Below are positions 6,220 to 52,127 of a stretch of 64,000 nucleotides of DNA, piece by piece. The notes under the pieces were generated by a model. It was not told where the DNA came from, did not search any database, and worked only from the letters and a program-made list of their open reading frames with translations. The translations under genes were made by a program, and so were the position numbers. The stretch is taken from assembly GCA_021513695.1 (NCBI GenBank), contig CP084166.1, positions 2,016,001 through 2,080,000 on the forward strand, read 5' to 3'. Source of the DNA: Candidatus Heimdallarchaeum aukensis (GTDB lineage Archaea; Asgardarchaeota; Heimdallarchaeia; Heimdallarchaeales; Heimdallarchaeaceae). The first letter of the stretch is position 1; every line of letters starts with the position of its first letter.

Positions 6220-6240
6220 TCACGTTTATTTTTTATTTAC

Positions 6241-8964: not shown

Positions 8965-8995
8965 TATCAAATTTAAAAGAAAAGAAAAATAAAGT

Positions 8996-9131: not shown

Positions 9132-10514
9132 CTATCTTCTATTTTTTAAAAAACGGAGGAGATTTTTAAGGGAGAAAAGAGAAACAAAGGATAAGGGAGT
9201 AATTACGATTATTAAATACATCATCTGATTCTTAACTAAGGGATTGGTATGATTGTAAAATTCTTCAAGATTAGTTAGACCGTCCCCGTCAAAATCAAGA
9301 TAAGAGTCATTAGTCAAAGGGTCAGAACCATAATGAACTTCCCAACCGTCAGGTAAAAGGTCTCCATCAGTGTCGCTAGACCAAGGATCAGTACCATAAA
9401 CATGATCTTCAAGATAATCCAGAAGGTTATCTCCATCGAAATCGCTCCCACGAGGAAAAGGGTCAAAAGCTTTAGCCGCGCCATCGATAGGGTAAGGTTC
9501 AGAGCCATCAGTATCTGACCAATAGTTGCCAATAGAATAGACGGGGTCAAACCAAGTGTTATTTATCCCATCATCAAAAGCTTGAGAAAGGTTCTTACCT
9601 TGATTGTTCTTGAAAAAAACATTACGAGAGATAAAGTTGTTAGAAGCAGATTTGTAAATATATAGTCCATACTCGCTGTTATTAAAAAAAACATTAGAAG
9701 AAAGGTGATTGTTAGAACCACTTACGGACAAACCACTTCTTCTGCTCTCGGAAATAACGTTATCGGTCACAGTGTTATTATCCCCACCTATTGCTAACCC
9801 ATCATAATTGGTATAAATAATGGTATTATTTGATATGAAGTTATTATGTCCTGAACTAAGAATTCCCCGTTCTCCACTATACAACAAGTAGTTATTAGTA
9901 ATAACGTTAAAACAAGTGTCGGTCATATCAATGCCACTTGCCCATCTAGTGTAAGAAATGTTATTACCGCTAACCAAGTTGTGAGAACCGTAGTGGATAT
10001 CTATTGCCTCCTCGGTGTGAGTGATAAAATTGTTAATAATGACATTATCAGAACTATGTAATGTTATCAATTCGCGTGAATAAGTTTTATTGGTCCCACC
10101 AATAAGAGTGGAGCCTTCAAGATGAAGATGGGCATTATCCCGTGCTCCAATATTCCAAGGACTGTCGGTGTAAGTTAGGATAGTAGTATCATAGATCGCT
10201 AAAGAAGAATTATCATAGGCATAAATACTTAGAGAACCTACTCGATCATGTTCAATAACAATAAAACAGTTACGAAGAATAAGAGAGCCTTCGTCCTTGA
10301 CATCAACTCTGTTGGTAAGTTTAATAAACTCGTTCTCAACTACAGTAGGTTCGGTAATGTTCCAAATACCATCAGGGGGAGGAAAAGAGCCAGAGCTAGA
10401 TGCTGAAGAAGTAACTATCGGACTAAAAGTAGGTGAAAATAACATAATAGAAGAAAAAATCATAAACACAAGTACAAACGAATTCTTTTTCCTTTTTTTT
10501 AGAATAAATATCAT
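9132..10514 (-). CDS. secreted right-handed beta-helix (PbH1/NosD-like) protein with C-terminal thrombospondin-type-3/dockerin-like Ca-binding repeats and a C-terminal hydrophobic anchor
   Basis: 460 aa. N-terminal signal/TM segment. Repeated NNxIxxN / GxxxxGSNN beta-helix rungs. DFDGDNLLD...DTDGDLLPDGWE...DFDGDGLTNLEE repeats of the DxDxDG type. C-terminal TM segment followed by a basic tail. Confidence 0.7.
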   Translation of the reverse strand: MIFILKKRKKNSFVLVFMIFSSIMLFSPTFSPIVTSSASSSGSFPPPDGIWNITEPTVVENEFIKLTNRVDVKDEGSLILRNCFIVIEHDRVGSLSIYAYDNSSLAIYDTTILTYTDSPWNIGARDNAHLHLEGSTLIGGTNKTYSRELITLHSSDNVIINNFITHTEEAIDIHYGSHNLVSGNNISYTRWASGIDMTDTCFNVITNNYLLYSGERGILSSGHNNFISNNTIIYTNYDGLAIGGDNNTVTDNVISESRRSGLSVSGSNNHLSSNVFFNNSEYGLYIYKSASNNFISRNVFFKNNQGKNLSQAFDDGINNTWFDPVYSIGNYWSDTDGSEPYPIDGAAKAFDPFPRGSDFDGDNLLDYLEDHVYGTDPWSSDTDGDLLPDGWEVHYGSDPLTNDSYLDFDGDGLTNLEEFYNHTNPLVKNQMMYLIIVITPLSFVSLFSLKNLLRFLKNRR

Positions 10515-23967: not shown

Positions 23968-26900
23968 ATGCAAAAAATCAAATCTAAAATGAATACTTTT
24001 CTAGGCAAATTGAATAAACGTAGTCTTGTTATTACAGGAGTAGCGTTATTTATTTCAGTAATTGTTATCCTTCAGAGTTTCTCTATTGCTCTCTATCCTC
24101 AATCATCAGACGATGATAGCTATACCTTTTTCTACTCTGACTTTTCAGATAAAGAAGAGTGGAAAGGAGTTTATCGCTTATCTTGGGGGTCTATAATTGT
24201 AGATAGTAATTTTAATGCTATGAGTAAAAAAATAGACCTTTATTGGTATGGTATGCAACAGTTGTTCTTAGAAGTGAAAGGAATAGATAGTTTAAAACTT
24301 GATTCTTCTTCAGCAATACAAGTTATAGACGCTGATACTTCTCGCATCTTATATGAACTTCGAGGATCTCAACTTTCTTCATTTAATGTCTCTGTAGACT
24401 TGTCCGCATACGTGTATGAAGACACTTCAGCGCTATATATCAATATTATTGGAAGCATAAAAATTATTGATTATATAAGAATTTTTACTCCTAAACTGTA
24501 TTATCATAATTTTCTTAACGATGGAAAAACTTTTCCGAATGCTTATCACGAATTTAATCAGTTATATATTGATTATTTAGCCTACACAGAAGAAGTGACC
24601 TATGAAACTCCAGTTATCAAAGTTCCAGAAGGTAATAACGTTAATCTTACTTTCGCTTTTAATTTAGTCCCATCGCTTACTTCTAATTATTCTATGTTTG
24701 CTCATATTTATGCCGATATATATGGATTAGGAGGTTTTGGTGAAGTAGAACAGCGAATAGAATTAGGATACAGTTATACAAATATGAGTTTTGGAGCAGA
24801 CTATGTCTCTCTTATTGATAAAGAAATAACACTTTTAGGAAACTACTATGTAAGATTTTACTTAAATTTTGATTGTTTTGAAACAAATGAGGAAGACATA
24901 CAAATAAAATTAATTGCTTTTTTCATTCAACCTCACAATAACGTTGAAGAGCAGTCTGAATATGTCGACCCTGCACTTTATATTCGCAAATCTCCCAATG
25001 CTTATATCTCTGAACAAGTAGTAGAAGGAAGGGTATTTAATGCTCTTACCGTTGATAGACAAGGATACATTGCTACATATAAGATCTCACATATGGATAC
25101 GATATTTTATGATAAATTAGATCCAAGCACTATTGAAGAAAATTATACAATAGGTAACCCTGATACCTTAGTATATGATTTCGACAGTTCTAAGAATCTG
25201 AGATTAAACTCCTCAGGTTACCTTTATTCCTCTGAGTCTATTGGTAGTGATTTCTCTGTTTCTACTTCTTTTAATCTTAATAGTTTAGCAAGTAACCGTA
25301 TTTTTGCAGGTATAGGTATTTATGGCACACATTCTTACGAATTTGCTGTAGGGAATATGACTCTTTATGAAGAAACTTATGTTGATGAAGAGACAACCAC
25401 AGTGAAAGTAAAAGAGGTTTATCAAGCTTATTTACATGTCTACAAAGACAATTTATTAATTCGCTCTTATGCTCTCAATCAGACTTTTGGAGAAGGACAA
25501 GTTATTTCTCTTTCCCTTTCCTCTAAATTTGGTTATAAAGCTTATAGTGTTCAAATTAATTATGAAGAAATAGTTATTTCTCTTTCCGAGATTATAGCGA
25601 TAGGAGGAAAACCAGGTATATTTGCTAAAATTCCTCAACCTAGCCCTGATAACTTTGTTTCCTTTTACTACTTATCCGCAAGTGGTATAACAGAATATAG
25701 TCCCCGTCGTTTATTGATTTATAGTAAAACTCAACAATATGTTACTGTTGTACTTAAAGCTACAAGAATCAATCCTTTGAGTTTTTCTTCGGAAAAAGTA
25801 GTTATAGACGAAAAGAAGTTATCTCAAAACAAAGAAGGTATACTTTATTTTTCTTATATTCCTAAACCTTTTGAGTATATTCATTTAGAAGTGTATTGTA
25901 CTAATCCTGATGAAGAGCTAACTAGTTCATTTAGTATTTTGGCTATGAAATTCTCAGGAATACACGAATATAATACAATTATCCCCTCTTATGATTACTA
26001 TGATATATCTGATTCTGTCTATTTCGAGAAACGTAATCTTATTTCTGAAGACCTTTCTGATAATTTTATTGCCTCTTATGACGCAATAGTAGAAGAAAGG
26101 TATAGTTTATTGGAGATAGGTGCTGAAGCACAAGACTCTCTTCCCGATACCCAAATAGATATTTATACTCGAAAATTAAATAGTGGGCTTCCTTTCACCT
26201 TCCAAGGAACAGTTTACTGGACTGAACATGAAAGTGGAAGTTTCTTTTCTCATGTTCTTTATCTTGATCTTTCACCCGGAAATTATGAGATAAGATTAGA
26301 ACGACCTTTAATTTTTACAAGTAAATTAAATATTAGTTACCTTCTTCTTCGACCTTTGACCTCTTATGCTAATGCTGTAACTGATTCAGTAGGTTTTACC
26401 AACCCTTTATCTTGGGAAAAAGATTTTACCACTGATAAAATTGATGCATTCAATGGTATAGACCAGTTTATAGAAGAGAGTTATTACTCTTTAGTTCATC
26501 CCAGTTGTTATATGAAAGACGATGGAAATGGGAACTATGAACAATATACTGATTGGACGCCTTCTACAGATGATACACAGATATGGTCAGTAGAAGATAA
26601 CCTTGCTTCCTTTGTAGGAGGAGTAAAACTTGATATTCCTGATGTTTCCACTGGTCCTGAAGGCTATCCCTATTTGCGTTTTGTTGCTAGAACATATTCA
26701 AACTGTACAATAGACTTAAAATTAACTTTAACTTACTCTGATGGAAGCACAAACGAGTACTATTATTCTGTTTCTCAAGAACCAAAAGTATACTTTTTCA
26801 ATTTTGATTATACTGATAGTCTTAAAATTTTATCGGGAATAGAATTTTTCACCAACTATATCCTTTATAACGATAAGGACGAGTCTGTTATCGTTTCCGA

Positions 26901-29900
26901 TATTCATCTTTATCGCTTTACTAACATAGAAGTCAAACTAGAAGATCAGTCGTATTTAGATGATAGTGGATTTGACACCTCTGACTATTCAGGAGACAAT
27001 TTTTCTGTTGCTCCCTTTTTGAGCGATTATTATGGCTTGCTTGATATAGATTTAAATTATATTCCATCAAACGAAAGGGTTAAAGTATGGACAGATAACG
27101 ATGCGGAAGGATTAAAACAATATTACTATAATTATAACAACCATTATTTGCTTCCTTCTACCGTTACTGTTCCTATAAACGATTGGAGGGTAAATAAAGG
27201 AGCGTCAGTAGGAATCTATTCTACTCCCTTAACTTCATTGAATCTTAATTTTATGATTAGTATGGATATTGAAAATAGAAAGACGTTTAATGAGGATATG
27301 ACAATTGAACTTTTTGAATATAAATTCAAGCCTAATACTGATGCTTATGCTACTTCTCTTCCTTATTCTTATTATAAACTTAAGTTCTATCTTTATGGTT
27401 CAATTGAAATGCAAAATGAAGAAGGAGAGATGGAAGGAGGATATTTGTACTACCGTTTATTTGCTTATGATGGAGTAGAAGAAACTGAACTTACTCCTAC
27501 TTACGATATGTTGAGCGATAATACTGATTTTCTTCAAGCTATATCTACTAATACTTTAGACTTTCCTAATATGCTAAGAATAACTGAAAATTATGAAAAA
27601 GGTATTACGCACCTTATTTATAATACAAATGAAGAAAGTGAACTTCGTGCTGTTTTTCCTGTCAATTTTGAAGAAGCGTATACTATTTCTATTCACTTTG
27701 GTCAAGATCAAGAAATTAAAAGAGAGTATGCCGATGCTGATTCTAAAGATGAGGTTTTTGACACACCATTTTTTGTAGGTGTATCCTCTTTTGACACTTT
27801 TCTGGATCTATATGGAGGAAGTGGAGAAAAAGCTACTCTATTATTCGCTGATGTAACAATTCCTAGTTCAATGTTTCCTTCTCTTTTTATTCAGACTTCT
27901 GAAGCTATTAACTCCACTACTGAACTTACATGGGGAACAGATTATTCTATTAATTGGTCACCTGAACCTACTTTCTATGTTAATTCTTACGAACCTTCTA
28001 GAAACGAAGAGACAGGGTATAAACCTCTTGCACATCACATTAACTTGTTTGAAAACCGTTATTTACTTTTGGAAGATTTAAAAACAATTTTTGAAGAAAT
28101 AGATGTTACTCCCTATTTAGTAAACGAAAACTATGGAGACTTTATTTATTTACCCAAATATTATTCTGCCACGCTTTCTACTCTTCAAGATGTATATGTT
28201 ACTACTTATGACTTAAGCTTTGAAGGGACAGGAAATTTCCAACTTATAGGTAATACCATACTCAAATCTTATATTTTTGATTATAACGACGAGAAAAACA
28301 AAAATTGGAAAAATGAATTTATTGATAAAACTGTTAGTTCTTTGAAGTTTATTTCTACTTATGAAAAAGACACTTTACCTAAAACCTATCTTTCATGTTT
28401 AGATTATTTATCTTATGAATATTACGCAAAAAACAAAAAAAGAGAGTATTCTTTTACTGACGGTTTTACTAATTATGAAGACTGGACAACAGTTGATTTT
28501 AGCCTCTTTGAAAGAGTAAAAGAACCTTCTTTACGTTCTTCTCCTCTAGGCTTAGTTATAGATGAGAATTCCATAGATTTTACCAGCGAAAATATGGATA
28601 GTATTTACGATTATTTTGACCCCACTGATGAGTTAGAAGATCTTTTCTCTTTTTCTGGAAAAACTATATATTATCTTCCCAGTTACTATATGAAAGGAGG
28701 AAATGACCAACCTGGTCATAGCCTTTGGGATAGAGTAATTGCAGGTGAAGCATTTCAAGGATTTAACCCTTCCTCTTCCCCCTATTATCAGAACCAGCTA
28801 TATCTTTACAACAATTGGATGTACGATTTGCAAAGCCAAATAATACAAAAAGAAGGATATAATATATATGACCAGAATGAATTACAGATTTATAATATCT
28901 ACGATGAAATTCCAGGTGATCACCGTGACTTTTCTTGTATGTTACCCGATTATTTAAGATTTAAACCAGTTTACTATTCTACTAGTTTACCTAAAAATTT
29001 TATATGGTCGTTTGATATAAACGTTGATTCATGGAGTCTTGGTAACCTTGCTGAAAACTATGTCAAATTTTTTGACAAAGAAGAAGGAAGATACTCTTTC
29101 TATATTAGTATACCTATTATTTTACCTTCTCATGGAAACAAACCTTATTATCAAGATTTAGCCCAAGCTCCCAATGTGTTAAGACTTTTCATCTATTATG
29201 ATTCAGGAACAGAATATCACGATTCAGATACAGAGACAGGATTTTTTAAACTTGACCCCCATTATAGTATCTATTTAGGTCGATCGATAATAGGAATTTG
29301 GAAGGCTTCAGAAAGTGTATCCCTCCATTTCGAAATAGCGGTAGAGGAAAAAGAGATAGACGAGAGTTATGCTATTTATCAAGAGGGTGTTAATGGAGGT
29401 CCTCAAATTACAGCTTATTACGATTATAACCTCCAGATGTGGATAAATAATGACAATATGTACTGGGATTTGCTTAAATTGCCGATGTGGATGTTGACAA
29501 TAGCTTATCCATATAAAGACAAAGATGATAATAAAGCAATACCCAATAACTACCAGTACGACCTCATGTATAATCAGTTATTTAATACTCAAAACTCTGA
29601 AAACGGTTATATCAACCCTCAATATTCTGAGGCTTTTAACACTTACTACAAAGGATTATATGGGGATAAAGAACCTAATGGTTTTCAACCTGACGCTAGA
29701 CTGTTTTTCGATACTGGGTCATTAACTGAACATACTTACCATTGGTTGCAATATCAACGTTCTTTAGTTTCCGATAAATATTACTCTTTATCTTTATCCG
29801 AGTACGGTATCGACCCTTCTAACCCTTCTCTTTACGATTGGGATTATCACTATTATAGCAGAGACAATTATGCAGGAATGGTTCGTTCAGATTTAGCGGA

Positions 29901-32900
29901 TGTAAGGTTTGAGAACCCTCGATATGTTAGTGGAGAATATAATTGGGCTAACATAGCAAATGAAATTTATGAATATGATACTGCTTTATATAACATAGAT
30001 TATGCTTTAGATAATAGTTTATACAAAATCCCACAAAGAACAATAGGTTTTGGAGTCAATTATCCTTTTGTGGGGATAAGTGACGTTTCTATTACTCCTC
30101 TTAACTCTATTCAGACAACTGATCTGGATGAGGATGGAGAAGAAGATTTCTCAATTATCAACGGAGACGTAGCAACGGATGGAGAAAATGTTATAGTTAA
30201 ACCTGGTAGTGCAATAACCTCTTTAGATCTGACAAATGATTTGGATATAGCTATTAAATATAAAGACATAATATCTTCTTGTAGGGGTTATTATGATAAC
30301 ACTTTTCTAGACTACTCTTTCGAAGTTGGGTTACAAGATTTGCATAACCCTAATCTTAAATATTATTTTTATATGAAAAATAGCTATCCATATAACCAAT
30401 ATTTTGAGTATGTAAATTCAGGACAGATTGATAATATCGTTCCTTTTACAGAAGACGATTCTTTACCAAGTTTAGATTCAGAAATAACTCAACCACTTAT
30501 GGGAACATATGTGGGGATAAAAGGTTACGCTCAGAGTTCGTCAGACTATTCATTAATAACAGACACACTTTCTTCTACTTTCAAACGTATATTTCAACCC
30601 AAGAATTCGATTTTATATGATTATTTAAATATAAAATATGATGTTACCACTAAAATATTGACTTTTATACTCTGGTCGGAAAAATACGGTAATAAGCAAT
30701 CCTATGAAATAAGCTATAACCTTTCGGAAACAGGAGAATTAGGAACGAATGATTTGACAAATTATACCTTATATTTTAAGACAGAGAACGCTTACTTGTT
30801 TATAGATAAGATTTACACTCGAACCTTTATGCCTGTAGAGGATACTAATTCTGAACGCTATTACAGAGGAGCAGGAAAACTAGGGGATTATTATCTTTAC
30901 TCTCCTGTTAATCATGGGTTAGAATTACAAAATCAAGTTAAACTTAACTATGAAGATTATAATCTTAATTCTTTTCCTTCCACTGAATTTTATTTCATAC
31001 CTACTTCAGAGTCCAGTTTCTCCTTAGATTTATTTGGAATAAAGAGTGATGATACACTCGAGAATTTTCTTAAGTTGGAAATAAATGGAAAAGAGTGTAA
31101 ACTTTCATTAGATTCTGGAGACTCATGGAATTCTCTCAATAATACAGAAATAGAGAATATGTTTGATGTGGTGAATAGTTATACTTGGAACAGTTTATCT
31201 ATTCATCGTGGGAGTGAAGAAGACCAGCTGATTATAACTCTGAATAATCAAGATTATCCTTTCGTTTTTCATATTGATACCGAGGAATATTATAAGTACA
31301 AGTTCACTTTAACTCATAAGCGTTCAAGAACTATAATAGACAATTTATCTTTCCTTTCTCTCTATGAGGAATTTGAAAATGAAAGAAAATTGTTAGACGA
31401 TGAGTGGGAAAAAGATATTTCTCGAGGATTTTACAGACAGATACAGGTGACAAAAGCTCAATCCCAACTAATTATTTATGGTGCATCGATTATAGAAGGA
31501 GAAACAGAAGTTACAGTGACCTTCAATGATGACCCCACTACTACTGTCAGTCAAATTTGGAAACAATCTTCTATAGGATTGAAAATGGACTATTATTCTT
31601 ATCTTATACCTTCTTCTGTCGATATGTCTTTGCCAGTTAAAGTTTCTCTTTCTGTTAGTAATATGGCTATAATCAATTGGTTAAGTATTGAACCGATGAA
31701 AGATATTGAGTCTATACTTTATCTTTCTAACAATAATAAGTATATAGACCAAGTCTATAGTCCAATGGAGTATCTTTCTGGTTCAGAACTTGTCTATTCT
31801 TCCACCTATGAGCAACCTCATGCTCTTGAAGTCGGAGGAACAACACAAGTAAAGTTCAAGTATAATTATTCTCCTGAAGATCTAGATGTCGCTCCTAACG
31901 TGGTTTTTGAAGGATTTATAAAAGGACAAGGTAAAATCTCTTTCTCTTTTCAAGTTAAACTTCCAGACAAATTTACTAGTTTGAATGTGAATTTCATAGG
32001 TTTAGTAGGTGTAGGAGAGAGTACAGAGCAGTATATTGCTACAATCAGCAGAGAAGAAAAAACGATTACTTATTCCGCTATTCTAAGTTCAGCAGAGGAG
32101 CAAGAACAGTGGAAATATTTCTATATTAGCCTTTATCAGCTTGCGAGACATATTCCTAAAGAATTACTTGTAGATAATTATTCAAATGGAAATAAAGAGG
32201 TTGATCTATTAGATGAAAATTACCCTGTTTCTGGTATAATTTCTGATGCAAAAATGGTCGTTAATTATGAAGGTTCATATGTGGAAAAAATCATCCAATT
32301 AGAAAAAGGAGCAAATCAAAATCTATACATTTCTGACTTGAAATCTACAATTACTAACATCCATAGCGCATATCCTTACGAAAATGCTTTATCTTCTTTG
32401 CCTGAGGAAATAAAATGGAAAAAATATGATGTTCCATTTGATGGGTATATTCCTCTTGATAATGTCTATCTTGATGATTTTGACGGTAGTTCGTATTATA
32501 TCTACGATGTAGTGGTTTATGTTGATGCTTCCACTTATTCTAAAGTACATTTAACAGTTGAAACTGAGGGATCTTTTGTTCTTTCTAACCGCTACTCTAT
32601 AATATTACAAAAGATGGGTTTTTCAAACGAAGTTGTTTCTACAGTCTTTAGCGCACAACAAGGATATACTCCCTTGTATCTTCACGTTGTTTTTCCAAAA
32701 ACAGCTTTTAATCAGAATATACGCATTCAATACATCTCCAATGGAGGAGTGGCTATAAGTGCTGAAAACAATAGAGAAGGAGATGCCATATCAGAGTGGT
32801 TGATCTCTACTCCTTTCTATTCGGAAAAAAATGAGGACACCGTTGATTATCTTAATTTTATTTCACAAGTTACACCTATGGAAGGAGAGCGATTCGAAAA

Positions 32901-35900
32901 AAGAGTAGTAGATTCAGAAGGATTTACCCACACAGAAACAATAGAATTTTCTGAATTCACTTTTCCTGGATTTTGTCCTATCTTAGACTTTGTTCCTCAT
33001 GCTGTTCCTTCAGGTTATTCTGTTATTCTCACTACTACGCTCGATTTCGCCAAAAGTTTGAACACTTCCTTAGTTCTACTTCTAAACAAAGAAAGTGGCA
33101 TAACAATACAATCCTTACTTTGGGATGAGACTCCACTTCTTTACATCAATGAAGGAGTATTTAACGAAATTGACTCCGATTTGGAAAATGGTATGATTAC
33201 TATACCTTTGAATAGTGAAGGGTTAACTGTCAACAGTCTCTTTTCTCCTAAAGAAAACAACCCTAATGAGTATGGTTTCATAGAAAACGACCCTGATTAT
33301 AACTTTCATTTTTCATCTTCTGACCCTTATAGTATAAAAACATCCTCTGTTAACCCTGATTCTGTTATTTTGAACAACAAAGGCATTCACAGAATAGTTA
33401 TCCAATTAACCTTTCCTTCTCCTTATAATACAGATTTTGGAATATATTTGGAAAATGTAGATGATAGCGTGCGAACTGTTTTATCTCCCTCAGATAAAGC
33501 AATAGACTTTCATGCAATCGCACAGAAGAACTTTATTCAATTTGAAAACGATCTTCATCAACCTCAAACTCTTGCTCAATTAGAGAAAAACGAGAATACT
33601 TTATTTAAATCACGATATTTCAAAGATGACTATGGTCAATACCATTCCTATAGAATTTATAGTCTTGGCTTTTCTGATGAATACACCTTAGATAAAGGAA
33701 AGAAATGGAAAATATATGATGGTGATACTGATGATTCTAACGATGTTATCTATGAAAGTACAGCTCACTACAATTGGAAACATGTAATAGGAAAGATGAA
33801 TTTTGCAATTGTTATAGATGAAGGAACTCCACAAGTTTTGCAATTGCCTTTTAATTTTCTAGTAGGTTACATGGTCTTTTGTGATTGGCTAGATACAAAT
33901 GGAGATGGATTAGAAGATACATGTGCTCCTTATATAGGTCTAGCAGACCCCTTAGATGCTAGTTCTACTTACGATGATGTAAAAAAAGGTGTAGTGTATA
34001 ATACAGAGGAAGAGAAGAAAATAAGTTATGATGTTACTGATGAACAACAAGCAGAACTCAAGAATCTTACTGTACGCCAATCGTTGATATCTTCTCTTTC
34101 AACTACAGTAATTACAAAAACAGAAGAAACCATCCCCTTATCCTACACTTCTGACGAAATAGCTGCTATTCAAAACAATGGATTAACTCTTGATCGTTAT
34201 CTTCATTCTTTAATAGAAAATGACTATTTGACCTACTCTGAAGATATTGCAAGAGTAGAAATAACTATTAGTTCTTCAAATAATAAAGAAATTGACCTTG
34301 CTTATGATTATGATAAAGAAATATTGTTCACCCACAGTGTTGATAATGCTACAGGAGAAGAAGAAAAAATAGTCTATGATTTTAGATATGACTGTTTTTC
34401 TGTCCTCACTCCTGATGCTCTTGCTAACGACAACTACAGAGTAGATTTTTATACTTTTAATAATAAACTAAGTCTCTATGATACCGATTTGTATAAACTT
34501 AAAGAAACGCCTAATTCTTACGGATTGTTAGATGATCCACAAACTCTTTCACCTATGGTAGTCTTAGAAAATTATAACTATGAAATAAAAGAAACAGTTA
34601 ATAGTCTTGATTCAAAAGATGAAGAAATTTTAAACAATAGTCCAACAACAATTGTAGACGCTTTTGTTCAAGGATTAAGTCTTTCTCAACTAAGCGTGGA
34701 AATGTATGATGCTGAAATAGAGATGGATTATTACAGTTTAGATCTCTTCTATTCTGTTTTCTTTAATGAATATTTGACTCTACAACAATTCTTCTATTCT
34801 CAAGAAACATTAAATAACAACCAGAATTATCAGTATTATCCTACTGGGACAATCCAATTTGCTAAATGGATTAGTTCAATACTTAACTCCTATATAATCC
34901 AACAATCAGACAAATTATTTGATGAATACCAAAACCGTACTTCTCGATATGATTCAGAGAAAAAAGCTATAGCTGCTATGTCCTTTTTGTTAGACCTTAT
35001 TATTCCTTATCGCGGATTCAAAACCTACGGTTCGGAACCTAAACCAGAAGAGACTCATCACCCACGTTTCTCTAGTTATGTGGACTTCAAATATAGTCTA
35101 GTTATGTTTTGGGGATTAATCTTAGGTAATAGTGCAGGCTGTGGAATACCTAAAAATTCTGTCTCTCTGTTTAGCGAGAGTGAGAGAACTGGAAAACTCT
35201 TGATGATTGACGAATTATGGGATAAAGCTATTAAACACTGGAACTTGGCAGATAAAAGTAGAATAGATGATCCTAGCGAATATTTGCCCTATACTGACCG
35301 AGCTGTAGTAGACAAAATACTGTTTGACGCCAGAGTAAGAGGAGATGAAGCTATGATCGACTGGATAACAAATGAAGATTATAGTGCTGAGGCTTATTAC
35401 ATGCAACCCTATGGAGTGGATTATTCGATCTATTACTGGTTGAAGGCTTTTACTATTCAACAAGGATATGACCCTTATGCTATCAAGGTTTACACCATTG
35501 AAGAGATGAATAGTCAAGAGAGAGAAGATTTTGACGAAAATTATTTTGTTATAGGCGTTCCTGTTTCCACAATCGAAGACCAATATTTAGAATATAACTG
35601 GTTTGTAAGTCTAGATAAAGAAACACGTGTGCCCACTTCTGCTACATCACAACTAATAGACTTTATCCCTCTTGTATTCGGTCAAAGTTCTAATCCACAT
35701 ATAAGAACAATGATGAAAATAATTAAAAGATTAGGAAATGCAGCAAAAGGAGAAAATTTCGGTTATAATACTTTTAGCATGAGTGAATTCAGCTTAATCG
35801 TTACTTTAGAATTTTTAGTTAATCTTGTAGATATAGGCGCTTTACTTATTGATATCAGAGATGCCTATATAGGAGCTACTCCTTTCATACGCAAAATGTC

Positions 35901-38900
35901 GCTCATGCAAATACCAATGGATATACTAGATTTGTTCACTCCAGGACCTTTTTCTCTCGTAGGAAATACAATGAATAAAATTTTCAAATCTATAGTCGGA
36001 GACGTTACCTTAGAAGTAAATAGGATAACAAAAACATTTAATTTACTAGATATTGTACAAAATTTCCCAAAAGGAGAGTGGAAAAGCATTGCTCGAGCAG
36101 CAGGAAAATCAGAACTAATGATCTGGATAGTTGGAGCAGCACAAGTGACTTACCGTTTCTCTAAACTAGCCAATCAATTCTATCAATGGTTCTTCTTCCT
36201 CCCGCAAAAGATTTTCATGAGTAGTTTACAAATAACTTTAGGGTCATTCATGATATTTGCCTCTAAAATGATTTATGCCATCAGAAGAATGGATATCGAA
36301 GAAGCAATGTTGTTAAACATTAAAGCGCAAAAATACTTCAACCAAGGACTAGATGATACCGCTAAAATGACAAGAGCTATATTAAGCCATCCAAAAATGC
36401 TAGCAAGATTTGGAACTGAAGAACTTATAGAACGAGCAAATATAGTAGCAAAATATTACATGAACATTATTATAAAGAAAGTAATGGAATTGGAAGCAAC
36501 ATCAAAAGCAATACTAGAATCGGTTGAAAAGTCACGCTTCTATGTTATGATGGCCTTAAGATATGCTACACATATGTACATGAACACCCCAGGAGGAGTA
36601 GGTATACACTTCTCTCCCAATTTAATTGATAATGAGAAAGAAACTGAAGGAATAAGACATTTCAACACCGTGGATAATATTTTGCCAAAATTAGAATATG
36701 AAATAGCAATGTATTACTGGAAGCATGAATATCTAGCGGATGATGAAAAAATAAAAGAGTATAATAGTGAAAAATTCAATTTCAGAGATGTAGAAAGCGC
36801 AAAAATACATATAACTATAGCTTTTTCATCTATTGCTGCAATACATTCGACACCAGAATCATTCCAAAGATATAAAGAACTACTAGAATACACAGATAAG
36901 AGGTTAATAGAAATAAAAAATGAAAAGGGTGAAAATCTAGAGTATACACCTATATGGTGGATTTTACATTTGCCTGTTGATCCCTCGCTACAAAAACTAG
37001 CCCTTAGCCACATATTTGATGAATCACCTGCAGTTTCACTGCTTCTAAAAGTTCTAATGGTAGAGAAAGGTCTTAACGAAGACTTATTAGAAAATAATAT
37101 CGACGATATAGATGAATACAATAAAGAAGTTCATTCCATTTTAGATCAAATTTTATCTTCTTCCCCCCTAAATATAAGTCATAAAGTCTTTATCCTTGAA
37201 AAAGATGAAAAAGGGAATCATATCTGGAAAGCAAGAATTTTAGATTTGTTAGGGCAATCTGAAGGATCATTAACTAAGTTAAGGACACGAGATGAATATA
37301 TTAAGTGGTCTGTAATCGGTAGAACAGGAATAGACTTGTTAGGCCTTTTCGGAAGTGAAGAATTAAAAAACTATTTTCCCAAAGGAGTAAGAAATGCTTT
37401 AACTGCTAGAAATGATCAAACTTCAATAATCTATGAGCTTATATGTATGGGATTATTAGATTTTAGATTTTATACAGATGATAAAAATGTAAAGGATCAA
37501 TTAAAAATTGATTTTCCAGAGCATGACTTTGAAAAAGAACCCAGTATTAGCATTGCTGAATTAGCTAAAAAATATAGTAAATATGATATTCTAGAATTAT
37601 TTGAAAAAAGTAATTTTATTAGACAGACTCTTATAAGTAATGGAGTAGACGGATTAATACACAGTACAAAAATAGGAAAGTCTCTTTATTCTGTTAAAGA
37701 TTCAACGGGAATATTCAATAAAGCTAATTCAAAAAATATTTTATACTCTGTAGCAGCTGAAAATGCATATATAGGTCATGGAAGTGTTATTTATTATTAT
37801 GATAAGCTACAAGGTGATATTATCACGGATATAGATAATAAATTGATATACAATGCTAGATATTATGATCCTACAGCTTCAAAATCACCTAAACCTTTTG
37901 TTCCAGGCGATGCAATATTACTCTATGATTCCAATGTAAATCGTTATCTGTTTTTAAGAACTAATTTTCCTGAGGACACTATGCTAAATCAAAATCAGAA
38001 ACTAGATGAATATAGTGGTTTTAAAAGAGAAATTAACGTGTTTTGGTTTCAAATAAACAAAGATACAAATGAGGGAGAGATAGTTTATGATACATTAGAA
38101 CACTATTGTTATGAAAATGAAAAACTGAAGGAAGGAATAAAAGTTGTTGGAACGGAGGATATTTTGCAAGAGGTAGATAAGTTTCATCCAAAGAGAAATA
38201 AAATAAGAAGTAGTCAACCTATAATATCAATAGAAGCAAAGCAAAATGGAGGGAACATAGATTACGTTGTCTCAATGGATGAACAACTTCCTTTATTTAG
38301 GTTTATAGGTGGAGATTATTCAACTGCAACAGAAAAAGACATCAATTTTGCTAGTTTTCTTTACCCAAGAAAACATTCCAACGATATTGTTTTCGGATTG
38401 CAAGATGATAACTTAGATTTTATCGATGAAAAGGGTTTATGGCCTATCCATATGGGTTTAAGCCCAGGAAGGTTTACATACAACGTGCAAAACATATATT
38501 TAGATGAGATTAATTCAGCAAAAGCGTTATTGGATAAATTAGATGAATTAGATAACTTGCCTGTAGTAGAAGTTAAAACAAAGGATAATGAATATATAAC
38601 TCGACCAGCAACAGTTCAGGAAGTAAATCAACAGAGAGTATATGAGTTAATTAGATGGTACTCTACAAGTCAAGTGTATACTTATTATGTGTCTAGTTTA
38701 AATAAAGAAAATAAAGCATTTTTGTGCAGAGCATATCTAGATGATTGGAATGCAGCTAAATCGTTAGGTGAAATCATAGAAATAGCAGAAGATACTAATG
38801 GAAATCTATACCAGAAATATGGTTATGAGAATAAACAAGAATATCTAACCTTTAGAATGAATGTTATTCAAACAATAATAAACGAACAAGAACAGTTCTA

Positions 38901-40641
38901 TAAATACAAGTTTAAAGATGAAAGTGATTTAACAAAAGAAGAAAAGTTGGTAATATTTCTAAAAGAACAAAAAGAATTTTTTGAAAGATTACATAATGAC
39001 GCTGCTAAAATAGAGGCATTTCAAGAACCATTTTTTTCAAACTTGAGACTAGACATTAAAGAAGTCGATACATATAATGTACTTAATTATCGCAGTTTAG
39101 AATCGTCAATTGAATTACTTTTATTAAATAGATTTGACTCGTATAATAAGATACACTTATTCGAAGGAGATGTACCTTTTTCAAGAAACCCGATGAAATT
39201 CGGTTTCGATAATGTAATTGTCCAAATAGGTACGAGAGCATTCATAAACAAGGTCAAAGAAGAGGGAATATTAGATTTTGATGAAGATAAAAATTCAGTA
39301 TTAGAACTAGCTAATAAAGTATTTAAAAGAAAAACAGTTATAAAACCATTAATCCGCGGACCAATAAAAGCAAAATCAATTGCTTTTCTCCAACATGAAG
39401 AAACAATGGCTAAACTGAACAATTATAAAACATTGCAAAAAATATCCAAAGAAGAAATAAGGCTCTGGAAACTTTACAACAAAAAATTAGATAATGAAAA
39501 AGGCCATTTGACTGTAGAGCAACTATACGAAATAGAAGAAGAGTTCAACAATATAAATGGAAAAAATATAGTAGGAAAACAAGGAGCAGGGATGACAGTA
39601 ATAGAAGATGGAAACACATATGTTGTAAAAATATACAGTCTCATCAGTGATTTAAGATATAATAACAAAATTCATGCAGGTAGTGAGGCAAATAAGTATG
39701 ATATTGCAGAAAGAGTGTTGGGACTAGCACAACACATAAAGTACGTAGCAAAGGAAGGAAGAATATACATTAATTATGCAATGGCAAACATTCTTTATCT
39801 GATAAAAACACTAACAAACGGTAAAATGGAAATAGATGACGTCCAGAATCTAAGGGACCTGGGAAATCCAAAGGAATTAGAAGCTATACTAGTAAATAAT
39901 TTAGGGGAAGAAAGAACAAAAGAAATACTAAATATTTTAGAAGAAGTAACCATAAGAACGAAAAGAAAAATAAAACAAGGAAAAGATTATTCCATAGAAA
40001 ATATAGAAAAAGGACAATCGTTGGCTTTTCAAATTGGATATGTGGATCTGAAAAATATAACCCCTGAGGTAAGAGGAAAATTAAGGCTACAAGGGATGTT
40101 ATTGAGAGAAATCTTGATGTTACTGGATATAATATATGGACTATATTATACAGGAAGAAATTATATGAAACGCCTAGATATTAATTTAGCGCAAACAACA
40201 GTAATTTTCGAAAAAACAACGGAAGAAGGCAAAACAATACTAAAATTAAAAGACGTAAAAACAAGCACAGAACAAGAAATGAATGGAGAGTTCATATCAT
40301 CACTGAACGATTTCGACCAAAAAACAGCATCAATAATAGAAAAACTGGCTGAAACTAAATATTCATCAGTATTTGGACCAGAATTTATGACTAGAGAACA
40401 ATTAAGAAAATTGGTAGATGAAATAATAGAAGAATATGAGAGTATACTAAAATTGAAAATAAGAAAATTCAATGAAATATTAACTCAAGACGATATGGAA
40501 GTAGAACTAGTAGCAAAGAAATTCAAAATAGAAGAATTGCTAAAAATGCTAACACCTAAAGGATTATGGTCAATGTACGAGCAAAAGAAAAGAAATAATG
40601 AAAAAAGAGGACAAACAAAAATAACAGACTTCCTAATTTAA
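23968..40641 (+). CDS. giant membrane protein (5557 aa): N-terminal signal-anchor, about 3600-aa ectodomain, cluster of hydrophobic helices, and an about 1400-aa Lys/Glu-rich cytoplasmic tail
   Basis: The start codon is 3 nt after the stop of the preceding giant gene, with GGAGG 8 nt upstream. N-terminal TM segment (LVITGVALFISVIVILQSF). Hydrophobic segments near aa 3660-4100 (KYSLVMFWGLILGNSAG, LMIWIVGAAQV, QITLGSFMIFASKMIYAI). The C-terminal third has a charged, helical-looking composition. Confidence 0.85.
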   Translation: MQKIKSKMNTFLGKLNKRSLVITGVALFISVIVILQSFSIALYPQSSDDDSYTFFYSDFSDKEEWKGVYRLSWGSIIVDSNFNAMSKKIDLYWYGMQQLFLEVKGIDSLKLDSSSAIQVIDADTSRILYELRGSQLSSFNVSVDLSAYVYEDTSALYINIIGSIKIIDYIRIFTPKLYYHNFLNDGKTFPNAYHEFNQLYIDYLAYTEEVTYETPVIKVPEGNNVNLTFAFNLVPSLTSNYSMFAHIYADIYGLGGFGEVEQRIELGYSYTNMSFGADYVSLIDKEITLLGNYYVRFYLNFDCFETNEEDIQIKLIAFFIQPHNNVEEQSEYVDPALYIRKSPNAYISEQVVEGRVFNALTVDRQGYIATYKISHMDTIFYDKLDPSTIEENYTIGNPDTLVYDFDSSKNLRLNSSGYLYSSESIGSDFSVSTSFNLNSLASNRIFAGIGIYGTHSYEFAVGNMTLYEETYVDEETTTVKVKEVYQAYLHVYKDNLLIRSYALNQTFGEGQVISLSLSSKFGYKAYSVQINYEEIVISLSEIIAIGGKPGIFAKIPQPSPDNFVSFYYLSASGITEYSPRRLLIYSKTQQYVTVVLKATRINPLSFSSEKVVIDEKKLSQNKEGILYFSYIPKPFEYIHLEVYCTNPDEELTSSFSILAMKFSGIHEYNTIIPSYDYYDISDSVYFEKRNLISEDLSDNFIASYDAIVEERYSLLEIGAEAQDSLPDTQIDIYTRKLNSGLPFTFQGTVYWTEHESGSFFSHVLYLDLSPGNYEIRLERPLIFTSKLNISYLLLRPLTSYANAVTDSVGFTNPLSWEKDFTTDKIDAFNGIDQFIEESYYSLVHPSCYMKDDGNGNYEQYTDWTPSTDDTQIWSVEDNLASFVGGVKLDIPDVSTGPEGYPYLRFVARTYSNCTIDLKLTLTYSDGSTNEYYYSVSQEPKVYFFNFDYTDSLKILSGIEFFTNYILYNDKDESVIVSDIHLYRFTNIEVKLEDQSYLDDSGFDTSDYSGDNFSVAPFLSDYYGLLDIDLNYIPSNERVKVWTDNDAEGLKQYYYNYNNHYLLPSTVTVPINDWRVNKGASVGIYSTPLTSLNLNFMISMDIENRKTFNEDMTIELFEYKFKPNTDAYATSLPYSYYKLKFYLYGSIEMQNEEGEMEGGYLYYRLFAYDGVEETELTPTYDMLSDNTDFLQAISTNTLDFPNMLRITENYEKGITHLIYNTNEESELRAVFPVNFEEAYTISIHFGQDQEIKREYADADSKDEVFDTPFFVGVSSFDTFLDLYGGSGEKATLLFADVTIPSSMFPSLFIQTSEAINSTTELTWGTDYSINWSPEPTFYVNSYEPSRNEETGYKPLAHHINLFENRYLLLEDLKTIFEEIDVTPYLVNENYGDFIYLPKYYSATLSTLQDVYVTTYDLSFEGTGNFQLIGNTILKSYIFDYNDEKNKNWKNEFIDKTVSSLKFISTYEKDTLPKTYLSCLDYLSYEYYAKNKKREYSFTDGFTNYEDWTTVDFSLFERVKEPSLRSSPLGLVIDENSIDFTSENMDSIYDYFDPTDELEDLFSFSGKTIYYLPSYYMKGGNDQPGHSLWDRVIAGEAFQGFNPSSSPYYQNQLYLYNNWMYDLQSQIIQKEGYNIYDQNELQIYNIYDEIPGDHRDFSCMLPDYLRFKPVYYSTSLPKNFIWSFDINVDSWSLGNLAENYVKFFDKEEGRYSFYISIPIILPSHGNKPYYQDLAQAPNVLRLFIYYDSGTEYHDSDTETGFFKLDPHYSIYLGRSIIGIWKASESVSLHFEIAVEEKEIDESYAIYQEGVNGGPQITAYYDYNLQMWINNDNMYWDLLKLPMWMLTIAYPYKDKDDNKAIPNNYQYDLMYNQLFNTQNSENGYINPQYSEAFNTYYKGLYGDKEPNGFQPDARLFFDTGSLTEHTYHWLQYQRSLVSDKYYSLSLSEYGIDPSNPSLYDWDYHYYSRDNYAGMVRSDLADVRFENPRYVSGEYNWANIANEIYEYDTALYNIDYALDNSLYKIPQRTIGFGVNYPFVGISDVSITPLNSIQTTDLDEDGEEDFSIINGDVATDGENVIVKPGSAITSLDLTNDLDIAIKYKDIISSCRGYYDNTFLDYSFEVGLQDLHNPNLKYYFYMKNSYPYNQYFEYVNSGQIDNIVPFTEDDSLPSLDSEITQPLMGTYVGIKGYAQSSSDYSLITDTLSSTFKRIFQPKNSILYDYLNIKYDVTTKILTFILWSEKYGNKQSYEISYNLSETGELGTNDLTNYTLYFKTENAYLFIDKIYTRTFMPVEDTNSERYYRGAGKLGDYYLYSPVNHGLELQNQVKLNYEDYNLNSFPSTEFYFIPTSESSFSLDLFGIKSDDTLENFLKLEINGKECKLSLDSGDSWNSLNNTEIENMFDVVNSYTWNSLSIHRGSEEDQLIITLNNQDYPFVFHIDTEEYYKYKFTLTHKRSRTIIDNLSFLSLYEEFENERKLLDDEWEKDISRGFYRQIQVTKAQSQLIIYGASIIEGETEVTVTFNDDPTTTVSQIWKQSSIGLKMDYYSYLIPSSVDMSLPVKVSLSVSNMAIINWLSIEPMKDIESILYLSNNNKYIDQVYSPMEYLSGSELVYSSTYEQPHALEVGGTTQVKFKYNYSPEDLDVAPNVVFEGFIKGQGKISFSFQVKLPDKFTSLNVNFIGLVGVGESTEQYIATISREEKTITYSAILSSAEEQEQWKYFYISLYQLARHIPKELLVDNYSNGNKEVDLLDENYPVSGIISDAKMVVNYEGSYVEKIIQLEKGANQNLYISDLKSTITNIHSAYPYENALSSLPEEIKWKKYDVPFDGYIPLDNVYLDDFDGSSYYIYDVVVYVDASTYSKVHLTVETEGSFVLSNRYSIILQKMGFSNEVVSTVFSAQQGYTPLYLHVVFPKTAFNQNIRIQYISNGGVAISAENNREGDAISEWLISTPFYSEKNEDTVDYLNFISQVTPMEGERFEKRVVDSEGFTHTETIEFSEFTFPGFCPILDFVPHAVPSGYSVILTTTLDFAKSLNTSLVLLLNKESGITIQSLLWDETPLLYINEGVFNEIDSDLENGMITIPLNSEGLTVNSLFSPKENNPNEYGFIENDPDYNFHFSSSDPYSIKTSSVNPDSVILNNKGIHRIVIQLTFPSPYNTDFGIYLENVDDSVRTVLSPSDKAIDFHAIAQKNFIQFENDLHQPQTLAQLEKNENTLFKSRYFKDDYGQYHSYRIYSLGFSDEYTLDKGKKWKIYDGDTDDSNDVIYESTAHYNWKHVIGKMNFAIVIDEGTPQVLQLPFNFLVGYMVFCDWLDTNGDGLEDTCAPYIGLADPLDASSTYDDVKKGVVYNTEEEKKISYDVTDEQQAELKNLTVRQSLISSLSTTVITKTEETIPLSYTSDEIAAIQNNGLTLDRYLHSLIENDYLTYSEDIARVEITISSSNNKEIDLAYDYDKEILFTHSVDNATGEEEKIVYDFRYDCFSVLTPDALANDNYRVDFYTFNNKLSLYDTDLYKLKETPNSYGLLDDPQTLSPMVVLENYNYEIKETVNSLDSKDEEILNNSPTTIVDAFVQGLSLSQLSVEMYDAEIEMDYYSLDLFYSVFFNEYLTLQQFFYSQETLNNNQNYQYYPTGTIQFAKWISSILNSYIIQQSDKLFDEYQNRTSRYDSEKKAIAAMSFLLDLIIPYRGFKTYGSEPKPEETHHPRFSSYVDFKYSLVMFWGLILGNSAGCGIPKNSVSLFSESERTGKLLMIDELWDKAIKHWNLADKSRIDDPSEYLPYTDRAVVDKILFDARVRGDEAMIDWITNEDYSAEAYYMQPYGVDYSIYYWLKAFTIQQGYDPYAIKVYTIEEMNSQEREDFDENYFVIGVPVSTIEDQYLEYNWFVSLDKETRVPTSATSQLIDFIPLVFGQSSNPHIRTMMKIIKRLGNAAKGENFGYNTFSMSEFSLIVTLEFLVNLVDIGALLIDIRDAYIGATPFIRKMSLMQIPMDILDLFTPGPFSLVGNTMNKIFKSIVGDVTLEVNRITKTFNLLDIVQNFPKGEWKSIARAAGKSELMIWIVGAAQVTYRFSKLANQFYQWFFFLPQKIFMSSLQITLGSFMIFASKMIYAIRRMDIEEAMLLNIKAQKYFNQGLDDTAKMTRAILSHPKMLARFGTEELIERANIVAKYYMNIIIKKVMELEATSKAILESVEKSRFYVMMALRYATHMYMNTPGGVGIHFSPNLIDNEKETEGIRHFNTVDNILPKLEYEIAMYYWKHEYLADDEKIKEYNSEKFNFRDVESAKIHITIAFSSIAAIHSTPESFQRYKELLEYTDKRLIEIKNEKGENLEYTPIWWILHLPVDPSLQKLALSHIFDESPAVSLLLKVLMVEKGLNEDLLENNIDDIDEYNKEVHSILDQILSSSPLNISHKVFILEKDEKGNHIWKARILDLLGQSEGSLTKLRTRDEYIKWSVIGRTGIDLLGLFGSEELKNYFPKGVRNALTARNDQTSIIYELICMGLLDFRFYTDDKNVKDQLKIDFPEHDFEKEPSISIAELAKKYSKYDILELFEKSNFIRQTLISNGVDGLIHSTKIGKSLYSVKDSTGIFNKANSKNILYSVAAENAYIGHGSVIYYYDKLQGDIITDIDNKLIYNARYYDPTASKSPKPFVPGDAILLYDSNVNRYLFLRTNFPEDTMLNQNQKLDEYSGFKREINVFWFQINKDTNEGEIVYDTLEHYCYENEKLKEGIKVVGTEDILQEVDKFHPKRNKIRSSQPIISIEAKQNGGNIDYVVSMDEQLPLFRFIGGDYSTATEKDINFASFLYPRKHSNDIVFGLQDDNLDFIDEKGLWPIHMGLSPGRFTYNVQNIYLDEINSAKALLDKLDELDNLPVVEVKTKDNEYITRPATVQEVNQQRVYELIRWYSTSQVYTYYVSSLNKENKAFLCRAYLDDWNAAKSLGEIIEIAEDTNGNLYQKYGYENKQEYLTFRMNVIQTIINEQEQFYKYKFKDESDLTKEEKLVIFLKEQKEFFERLHNDAAKIEAFQEPFFSNLRLDIKEVDTYNVLNYRSLESSIELLLLNRFDSYNKIHLFEGDVPFSRNPMKFGFDNVIVQIGTRAFINKVKEEGILDFDEDKNSVLELANKVFKRKTVIKPLIRGPIKAKSIAFLQHEETMAKLNNYKTLQKISKEEIRLWKLYNKKLDNEKGHLTVEQLYEIEEEFNNINGKNIVGKQGAGMTVIEDGNTYVVKIYSLISDLRYNNKIHAGSEANKYDIAERVLGLAQHIKYVAKEGRIYINYAMANILYLIKTLTNGKMEIDDVQNLRDLGNPKELEAILVNNLGEERTKEILNILEEVTIRTKRKIKQGKDYSIENIEKGQSLAFQIGYVDLKNITPEVRGKLRLQGMLLREILMLLDIIYGLYYTGRNYMKRLDINLAQTTVIFEKTTEEGKTILKLKDVKTSTEQEMNGEFISSLNDFDQKTASIIEKLAETKYSSVFGPEFMTREQLRKLVDEIIEEYESILKLKIRKFNEILTQDDMEVELVAKKFKIEELLKMLTPKGLWSMYEQKKRNNEKRGQTKITDFLI

Positions 40642-40664: not shown

Positions 40665-40768
40665 TGGTGCGTCAACCGGGAATTGAACCCGGGCCGTCGA
40701 ATCTCTTCTTGAGGCTTCTAGACGCCATATAATGGAAGTCCGACGTACTACCACTATACTATTGACGC
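40665..40768 (-). tRNA. tRNA-Gly (anticodon TCC) with an intron of about 30 nt
   Basis: Minus-strand read: GCGTCAA TA GTAT AGTGGTA GTAC G TCGGA CTTCCAT [intron] TTCGA CGGC CCGGG TTCAATT CCCGG TTGACGC A CCA. Confidence 0.7.
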
Positions 40769-41482: not shown

Positions 41483-41558
41483 ATTTCGTTATAAACAAAG
41501 TTTATGAATGCTAGTAAAAAATTAAACATGAAGTATATTTAAAATAGAGGTATAGATA

Positions 41559-41753: not shown

Positions 41754-41799
41754 TATTATTCTTTCTTACGTTTTACTTAAACCTCGTGGAGATGAAATT

Positions 41800-52095: not shown

Positions 52096-52127
52096 ATCTT
52101 TATATATTTCCTTTTCCTTTTTTCTTT

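Follow-up and report, generated by a model that had tools for sequence, protein, structure and literature searches.

The window analyzed here, a 64,000-nucleotide (nt) stretch of DNA from Candidatus Heimdallarchaeum aukensis (contig CP084166.1), carries an aloposon, an integrated element with two giant genes in tandem. Its character is archaeal: the G+C content is ~32%, and the window encodes an archaeal/eukaryotic-type ribosomal protein L10/P0, an Spt5 homolog, and several intron-bearing tRNA genes. The host belongs to the Heimdallarchaeia, the archaeal group nearest to eukaryotes. To our knowledge, aloposons are the sole non-viral integrated elements so far described in that group; the two giants, which have no known function, fill most of the aloposon. 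The two giant genes of the window lie 2 nt apart and encode first a 4,223-amino acid (aa) and then a 5,557-aa protein, which share no sequence similarity. We focus on the second, giant gene 2, and its product, called p2, the C-terminal tail of which behaves as an exchangeable module.

Architecture of giant protein 2

A reading of this DNA made from its letters alone (the sequence-only reading) delimited giant gene 2 correctly and proposed a protein with a huge ectodomain, a membrane segment, and a long tail. In outline, this three-part layout holds: p2 consists of a very large body that is exported, a junction with hydrophobic stretches, and a tail of ~1,450 aa that differs in composition. With its N-terminus included, p2 is a four-part protein, comprising an N-in signal-anchor, an exported body of ~3,600 aa, a helical junction of ~450 aa, and the ~1,450-aa tail. 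The parts are given below. Hydrophobicity is expressed as Kyte–Doolittle (KD) hydropathy, as Goldman–Engelman–Steitz (GES) score from a TopPred-like scan, and as Hessa-type free energy (dG). A sequon is N-X-S/T with X not Pro, and expected sequon counts come from shuffles within 60-aa blocks.

23968..40641, + strand: giant gene 2, the gene studied, 5,557 aa; nt 34960 is codon 3665
24025..24081, + strand: signal-anchor, aa 20-38; seven K/R before, acidic stretch after; KD 2.49, GES 2.09, dG -0.5
24082..34935, + strand: conserved exported body, aa 39-3656; acidic, S/T/Y-rich, 24 sequons
34936..36297, + strand: conserved helical junction, aa ~3657-4110; hydrophobic stretches; last family-wide homology (hhalign 99.7-99.9%)
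35089..35151, + strand: hydrophobic stretch a, aa 3708-3728; GES 1.46, KD 1.30, dG +4.1
35788..35862, + strand: helix b, aa 3941-3961, with DIRD at aa 3962-3965; KD 2.21, no GES peak >=0.6, dG +3.2
35908..35931, + strand: invariant QIPMDIxD motif, aa 3981-3988, from the junction alignment
36196..36273, + strand: invariant FLP motif (aa 4077-4079) and stretch c, aa 4082-4102; GES 1.54, KD 1.23, dG +5.7
36298..40638, + strand: polymorphic tail, aa 4111-5557; K/E-rich; 2 sequons versus 9.6 expected; no homolog beyond its own allele group
38200..39057, + strand: best-conserved tail core, aa ~4745-5030; 73-80% identity among three alleles; lowest dN/dS, 0.18-0.3

An ortholog of p2 is encoded by Ca. 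H. endolithica PR6 (P0004, K9W46_10605; 5,541 aa), in a neighborhood different from that of giant gene 2 in the window. It is 96% identical to p2 over aa 1-3300 and 84% identical over aa 715-5531. More distant full-length homologs are P0005 and P0006 (5,274 and 5,335 aa, Heimdallarchaeaceae) and P0009 (5,234 aa); these and P0004 came from a cluster look-up and from searches of a word index. When aa 3931-5100 served as the query of an exhaustive HMMER search across 1.84 billion representatives, the yield was three proteins only, namely a partial allele (P0001, on contig L001), the chimera P0002, and P0003, a fragment limited to the junction; no other tail homolog came up. P0002 (an ENA fragment of 205 aa matching aa 4098-4225) has an unrelated signal-peptide-like start. 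It was set aside as a chimera derived from short reads because its end string, VSYTHLTLPTN, is recognizable as translated sequencing adaptor, and it stands as a caution regarding database proteins of that origin.

No recognizable domain emerged from library searches. Specifically, Pfam, NCBIfam, PADLOC, and PHROGs gave nothing significant for whole p2 or for the three tail types described below; PDB sequence and profile searches gave no match; tblastn against phage genomes gave no match; and scans of metagenome and viral contigs with a junction profile, an N-terminal profile, and P0005 gave no loci. No tail-like fragment lies elsewhere in the window. The suggestion that p2 is more than a simple (repeat) adhesin is in keeping with its lack of internal repeats and of Pfam domains or repeat families.

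The segment at aa 20-38 is the sole unambiguous membrane helix of p2 and the only one with a Hessa-type dG below zero. It is conserved in P0004, P0005, and P0009. The seven basic residues before it and the acidic stretch after it point to N-in orientation. The body that follows is 90-100% identical to that of PR6 and 25-31% identical to those of the distant lineages. Across lineages, giant protein bodies carry 22-42 sequons each.

The junction had been described as a multi-helix membrane segment, with several hydrophobic stretches separated by short loops at aa 3660-4100. The clustering is real: KD 19-mer peaks of >=1.2 occur at aa 3709-27 (1.30), 3943-61 (2.21), and 4087-4105 (1.43), that is, three clusters in 450 aa versus five in the preceding 3,650 aa. 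The short loops are not, as the spacings are ~210 and ~120 aa, nor are the stretches strong. Their Hessa-type 19-mer dG is +3.2 to +5.7, and when the scales were calibrated with other proteins of the window, authentic helices of multi-pass proteins (PlsY, a DUF4271 protein, and others) scored GES 1.0-2.2 and false peaks in soluble proteins reached up to 1.37, so the junction stretches fall in a grey zone.

Conservation across the family singles out helix b. In the junction alignment, only this segment is hydrophobic in every lineage (KD 2.21, 1.66, and 1.56; dG +3.2 to +5.6), and it carries the invariant residues E3948, L3950, N3952, A3958, and L3959, with the invariant DIRD directly after. 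The family-wide motif string of the junction reads ExLxN...AL..DIRD...F.R...QIPMDIxD...FLP. The P0005 counterpart of stretch a contains Arg; the counterparts of stretch c are Lys-rich in P0003 and P0009 and non-hydrophobic in P0005. Since hydrophobicity is thus not a family-wide property of stretches a and c, the alignment does not support a membrane domain of several conserved helices. At most, the junction could contain one unusual membrane-spanning helix.

The K/E-rich character ascribed to the tail is confirmed. K+E makes up 12.0% of aa 41-3650 and 19.0% of aa 4111-5557; for S+T+Y, the respective values are 25.1% and 15.5%. A log-odds composition classifier, contrasting 14 cytoplasmic proteins of the window with giant protein 1 plus a secreted beta-helix protein, was run over p2 in 200-aa segments. 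All segments of aa 1-4000 are surface-like, six of the eight past aa 4000 are cytoplasm-like, and the other two (aa 4601-5000) score about zero. This flip near aa 4000 recurs in P0004 and P0005 and is weaker in P0009. That the tail is not Cys-rich is true, yet all of p2 is Cys-poor; that it has no glycosylation-like composition proves truer than the sequence-only reading had put it, as described below. The coiled-coil-like nature of the tail, by contrast, finds no support: a crude heptad scan yielded no stretch above the 99.9th percentile of shuffles and no excess over them, and the low-confidence secondary structure from AlphaFold2 for aa 4540-5020 is mixed alpha/beta.

Tail exchange between lineages

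The tail of p2 is non-homologous between lineages and is swapped by recombination. BLAST homology of p2 ends at p2 aa 4084 with P0005 and at aa 4122 with P0009. The probability assigned by hhalign is 99.7-99.9% for junction pairs and, even with small profiles, <=0.4% for every pair of tail types. Although non-homologous, the three tail types, represented by p2, P0005, and P0009, are of similar length (1,447, ~1,330, and ~1,410 aa).

Close relatives locate the exchange. Contig L001, which encodes P0001, is 100% identical in DNA to window positions 31514-35832 and ~75% identical from ~nt 36300; the first P0001 mismatch, nt 35833, falls within helix b. For the PR6 allele, protein identity is 90-100% up to ~aa 4225 and 40-75% beyond it. 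The same drop at the junction occurs within the P0005 lineage, in P0008. Among close relatives, synonymous divergence (dS) is 0.03-0.35 in the body versus 0.8-1.1 in the tail, with a host baseline of 0.31 taken from the single host gene common to both loci. A tail dS of ~1 alongside a low body dS indicates that the tails predate their carrier elements and became attached through recombination in or just after the junction. The ratio of nonsynonymous to synonymous divergence (dN/dS) in the tail is 0.18-0.5, and thus the tail is under purifying selection.

Might the tail instead be a poorly constrained, decaying, or misassembled extension, arising for instance from gene fusion, as the tail of a pseudogene, or from a chimeric contig? 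Its fast divergence, its lack of homologs and domains, and the abrupt step from 100% to ~75% identity in L001 would all be expected of such a sequence. The ORFs, however, run uninterrupted for 5,234-5,557 aa in no fewer than four assemblies, including a closed genome; the tail dN/dS is low and its dS is elevated as well; the core at aa 4745-5030 is conserved; and the sequon avoidance presented below implies selection. We consider this explanation very improbable. Its pseudogene and assembly-artifact versions were rejected on the dN/dS values and the intact ORFs.

Tail sequences also occur on their own. In PR6, two tail-only ORFs of 109 and 1,118 aa match P0005 exclusively at aa 4067-5265, with 54-64% identity, and a second fragment of 175 aa matches the P0005 C-terminus with 98% identity. 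These sequences lie between a ribosomal protein operon and secY, beside a duplicated 5' piece of secY. The tail-only ORFs could be silent cassettes or remnants of decayed insertions.

The tail-only sequences are part of a 6.6-kb insertion between the ribosomal protein operon and secY of Ca. H. endolithica (nt 4137-10740 of locus L005, CP084167.1 1889004-1909645). In addition to P0005-type tail-only copies of 109, 1,118, and 213 aa, the insertion holds a leucine-rich repeat protein on the opposite strand and the duplicated secY 5' end, an 84-aa piece (Plug_translocon).

Sequon avoidance and the location of the tail

Sequons are nearly absent from tails that share no ancestry. The p2 tail contains 2 versus 9.6 expected, the P0005 tail 0 versus 10.7, and the P0009 tail 0 versus 12.2. 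Combined, these three unrelated tails have 2 versus 32.5 (Poisson P ~1e-11). The related alleles show the same trend, with 3 versus 8.7 in P0004 and 4 versus 8.3 in P0001. The control motifs [ST]-X-N, N-[ST], N-X-X-[ST], and D-X-[ST] are at expectation in all five tails, as are Q-X-[ST], N-X-[AG], and N-X-[DE] in the p2, P0004, P0001, and P0005 tails. In 19 cytoplasmic control proteins from the window and PR6, 38 sequons are present versus 35.5 expected. The sequon-poor zone starts shortly ahead of the junction: the last body sequon is at aa 3656 in p2, aa 3515 in P0005, and aa 3557 in P0009. Genes for OST3/STT3/ribophorin are present in the host genus (PMC8813620).

Nothing should drive a cytoplasmic domain to shed sequons; avoidance therefore argues that the tail meets the glycosylation machinery and, hence, is exported. 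Most simply, the tail would pass through the membrane and have to remain without glycans. The notion we favor, to which we give an even chance, is that p2 is an N-terminally anchored surface giant with everything past the anchor exported and with a swappable C-terminal specificity or effector module. Specifically, the N-terminus would anchor the protein in the N-in orientation, and everything after the anchor would be exported. The conserved body would form a surface stalk. The tail would cross the membrane with the rest of the protein and be kept glycan-free, and the stalk would present or deliver it as a swappable specificity or effector module. The junction helices would serve as a buried core of helices, or as a conditional device for membrane insertion or processing, and not as permanent membrane spans.

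The sequence-only reading offered a different topology, in which p2 is a receptor-like protein. Here, an N-in anchor would be followed by a giant extracellular loop, a stop-transfer helix in the junction (aa 3941-3961 being the likeliest candidate, either by itself or together with an even number of further helices), and a cytoplasmic tail of 1,450 aa that couples outside events to inside partners. The sharp switch to cytoplasm-like composition at ~aa 4000 in p2, P0004, and P0005 is what such a topology would produce; the shift is weak in P0009. The near-absence of sequons from three unrelated tails points the other way, with the reverse and offset control motifs normal and the cytoplasmic proteins neutral. 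As to the stop-transfer helix, helix b is hydrophobic in every lineage, the GES values of the other two stretches (1.46 and 1.54) overlap those of the weaker genuine PlsY membrane helices, and an RR pair follows aa 4105. Helix b, however, has an invariant Glu and Asn in its core and an unfavorable dG, and stretches a and c are not conserved as hydrophobic. An orphan tail ORF devoid of any signal peptide and a similar predicted layout reported for the Dockerin-type giants of Omnitrophota (bioRxiv 10.1101/2023.11.21.568195) lend the receptor topology some further credit. Set against a signaling role, searches of Pfam, NCBIfam, PADLOC, PHROGs, and PDB found no conserved cytoplasmic signaling or output domain in the tail, and the tail is the least conserved part of the protein, the opposite of typical receptors. 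A variable, recombination-swapped part does not resemble a conserved signaling module. We regard the receptor model, with its cytoplasmic tail, as doubtful.

A stronger form of the exported-module notion is contact-dependent effector delivery, in which the body is a stalk, the junction inserts in a target membrane and/or is cleaved at DIRD/QIPMD, and the polymorphic tail is then translocated into the neighbor's cytoplasm. The layout is like that of polymorphic toxins: a conserved body, an invariant junction motif, unrelated C-terminal modules, and orphan cassettes. Cytoplasm-like composition together with strict sequon avoidance would suit an exported, translocation-competent domain that acts in a cytoplasm, and the hydrophobic helices of the junction carry conserved acidic residues. 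Nonetheless, library searches found no toxin or enzyme domain in any tail, known polymorphic toxin domains are shorter than the tails by a factor of 5-10, a tRNA rather than an immunity gene follows after 27 nt, cleavage and translocation are purely proposed, and the orphan cassettes may be insertion remnants. We judge this form unlikely. Extended to the family, the notion is that aloposon giants are an archaeal contact-dependent delivery machine with no sequence relation to the bacterial ones, to which we assign only an outside chance. In such a machine, the glycosylated 3,600-aa stalk would hold a junction that releases the 1,400-aa glycan-free effector into a neighboring Asgard cell, and effector cassettes would be exchanged through recombination with silent tail-only copies.

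Several observations weigh against our favored notion of an exported, swappable module. Sequon avoidance is indirect evidence, and it is at odds with the fact that two of the three tail types are cytoplasm-like in composition; the p2 and P0005 tails resemble the organism's cytoplasmic proteins in this respect. An alpha-rich fold, or a module that ultimately works in a cytoplasm, could explain that composition. Giant protein 1 has a 900-aa region of its own (aa 3099-3998) with 0 sequons versus ~12 expected. The 1,118-aa orphan tail ORF lacks a signal peptide and would be cytoplasmic if expressed, and the orphan cassettes are possibly mere remnants of decayed insertions. No immunity-like gene follows the tail; in both genomes, a tRNA lies within 27-36 nt of the stop. 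None of the three tail types yielded a toxin, binding, or enzymatic domain in library searches. Helix b stays hydrophobic in all lineages (KD 1.56-2.21), and a dedicated predictor might call it a membrane helix. Finally, the AlphaFold2 models of aa 3650-4450 (predicted local distance difference test [pLDDT] 33.6) and of aa 4540-5020 (pLDDT 35.4) are unusable.

These findings provide a first concrete handle on the role of one aloposon giant. With its body exported, its junction invariant, and its tail both exchangeable and devoid of glycosylation sites, the protein would direct attention to surface recognition or effector delivery rather than to signaling. Sequon avoidance is, moreover, a simple topology clue that requires only sequence and could be applied to other giant archaeal proteins, for which standard topology tools reportedly conflict. 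If true, the delivery version would place a machinery of inter-cell conflict or cell–cell contact in Asgard archaea, with bearing on how the archaeal ancestor of eukaryotes dealt with its partner cells. In that case, the archaeal lineage nearest to eukaryotes would have its first polymorphic effector system, one carried on a transposon-like element.

The aloposon, its surroundings, and known systems

The other features of the element are as follows.

4765-6219, + strand: DUF4365 protein (Pfam match), first ORF of the upstream aloposon gene block (4765..8964)
6708-6980, + strand: small ORF of the upstream gene block, from the ORF list
6987-8180, + strand: ORF of the upstream gene block, from the ORF list
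8164-8964, + strand: MinD/ParA-like ATPase of the upstream gene block (Pfam AAA_31/CbiA/ParA)
9132..10514, - strand: NosD/beta-helix protein inside the element, with a TSP3 repeat, an N-terminal signal, and a C-terminal membrane anchor (Pfam and hydropathy)
11294..23965, + strand: giant gene 1, 4,223 aa; N-terminal signal; C-terminal membrane anchor at aa 4178-4198, then a basic tail
40668..40768, - strand: intron-containing tRNA, Gly-UCC by manual reading, 27 nt beyond the stop of giant gene 2

Aloposons have been described as tRNA-associated elements with four consecutive upstream genes, including a bacterial MinD/ParA-like ATPase, and with two tandem genes for proteins of 3,000-6,000 aa, Otus and Ephialtes; they integrate at a tRNA that follows the giants on the downstream side (Wu et al. 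2022, PMC8813620). The element in the window is an aloposon of Ca. Heimdallarchaeum, and giant gene 2 is its second giant. This identity follows from the tandem giants, the four consecutive co-directional ORFs upstream of them with the MinD/ParA-like ATPase among them, the downstream tRNA, and the ortholog P0004. Giant gene 2 is, therefore, already in the literature as a gene, as either Otus or Ephialtes. The words "transmembrane," "C-terminal," and "polymorphic" appear nowhere in the main text of that report (PMC8813620), from which it follows that the main text contains no topology or tail analysis of the giants. There, the Aloposon2/Aloposon3 pair, sited at different tRNAs and in different neighborhoods, is termed "highly conserved" (Wu et al. 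2022, PMC8813620), whereas here the tail of giant protein 2 is a divergent, swapped cassette.

Homology of the host sequence to PR6 stops at nt 4726, and the tRNA at 40668..40768 is presumed to be the integration site of the element. The tRNA 36 nt after the PR6 ortholog differs from it. No direct repeat of the tRNA (att type) was found when the opposite end of the element was searched. In PR6, the PD-(D/E)XK gene and tRNA that form the left flank of the element here are located 7 kb beyond the giant gene, on its downstream side. A tandem 32-nt repeat pair (ACCTATAAAAAACGTCTATAAAAACTATCGAC, 88% identical; 10644-10707), which could be a regulatory or partition site, lies in the 780 nt of intergenic DNA upstream of giant gene 1. 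The sequon-free zone of giant protein 1 lies upstream of its C-terminal membrane anchor (aa 4178-4198) and may pair functionally with the sequon-free tail of giant protein 2.

Beyond the element, the ribosomal L1/L10/(L12) genes with tRNA-Cys (68-2260) are ~39 kb from the genes for L11 and Spt5/NusG (40985-42294), and the aloposon plus a few other genes occupy the interval. Immediately past the right end of the element is an Eco57I-type restriction-modification methylase gene (42327-44684, +). Farther along, an ADP-forming acetyl-CoA synthetase-like gene (45435-47549) adjoins a gene for a PlsY-type glycerol-3-phosphate acyltransferase (47646-48335, +), a bacterial-type ester-lipid enzyme in this Asgard genome. 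A 967-aa ORF (51978-54881, +) overlaps tRNA-Leu (52000-52084). Its first ~400 aa are F/S/L-rich and of low complexity, within strongly T/C-skewed DNA; only its C-terminal ~560 aa are protein-like, and it has no Pfam match. Finally, the tRNAs at 3501-3605 (-), 40668-40768 (-), and 63608-63730 (+) were detected by Rfam and missed by ARAGORN, apparently because they contain introns.

Among known giant proteins, the layout that the sequence-only reading proposed for p2 is found in the Dockerin-type giants of Omnitrophota, which have a long, predicted extracellular N-terminal region free of membrane helices, then predicted membrane helices and an intracellular C-terminus (bioRxiv 10.1101/2023.11.21.568195). 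On such giants, TMHMM and DeepTMHMM disagree (West-Roberts et al. 2023 preprint, bioRxiv 10.1101/2023.11.21.568195). The Dockerin-type giants share this layout and differ from p2 by their recognizable dockerin and discoidin domains; they have no homology to p2.

Exchange of C-terminal parts has parallels elsewhere. The mosaic tail fibers and receptor-binding proteins of phages have a conserved N-terminal part and C-terminal tips that are swapped by recombination at conserved junctions. Like them, p2 combines a conserved N-terminal part with a tail swapped at a conserved junction. Unlike them, p2 has no similarity to phage proteins (PHROGs, tblastn) and possesses an N-terminal anchor, and its element has no virion genes.

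A second parallel is with polymorphic toxins. CdiA (contact-dependent inhibition, CDI), Rhs/YD proteins, and MafB have a large conserved exported N-terminal part and an invariant boundary motif, beyond which non-homologous C-terminal modules are swapped by recombination; their toxin domains are 100-300 aa, and orphan C-terminal cassettes occur at other sites of the genome. Like the CDI and Rhs toxins, the p2 family has a conserved N-terminal region, a conserved motif, and non-homologous C-terminal modules, and the tail-only ORFs beside secY in PR6, which may be remnants of decayed insertions, recall the orphan cassettes. Unlike these toxins, p2 has no FHA or YD repeats and no VENN or PxxxxDPxGL motif, its junction motifs being different. 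Its tails, of ~1,400 aa, come with no recognized toxin domain or immunity gene. Its host is a single-membrane archaeon, and its gene sits on a mobile element beside a second, unrelated giant. We infer that the logic of p2 is analogous to that of the CdiA/Rhs C-terminal cassettes or of phage tail-fiber tips, reached with no shared sequence.

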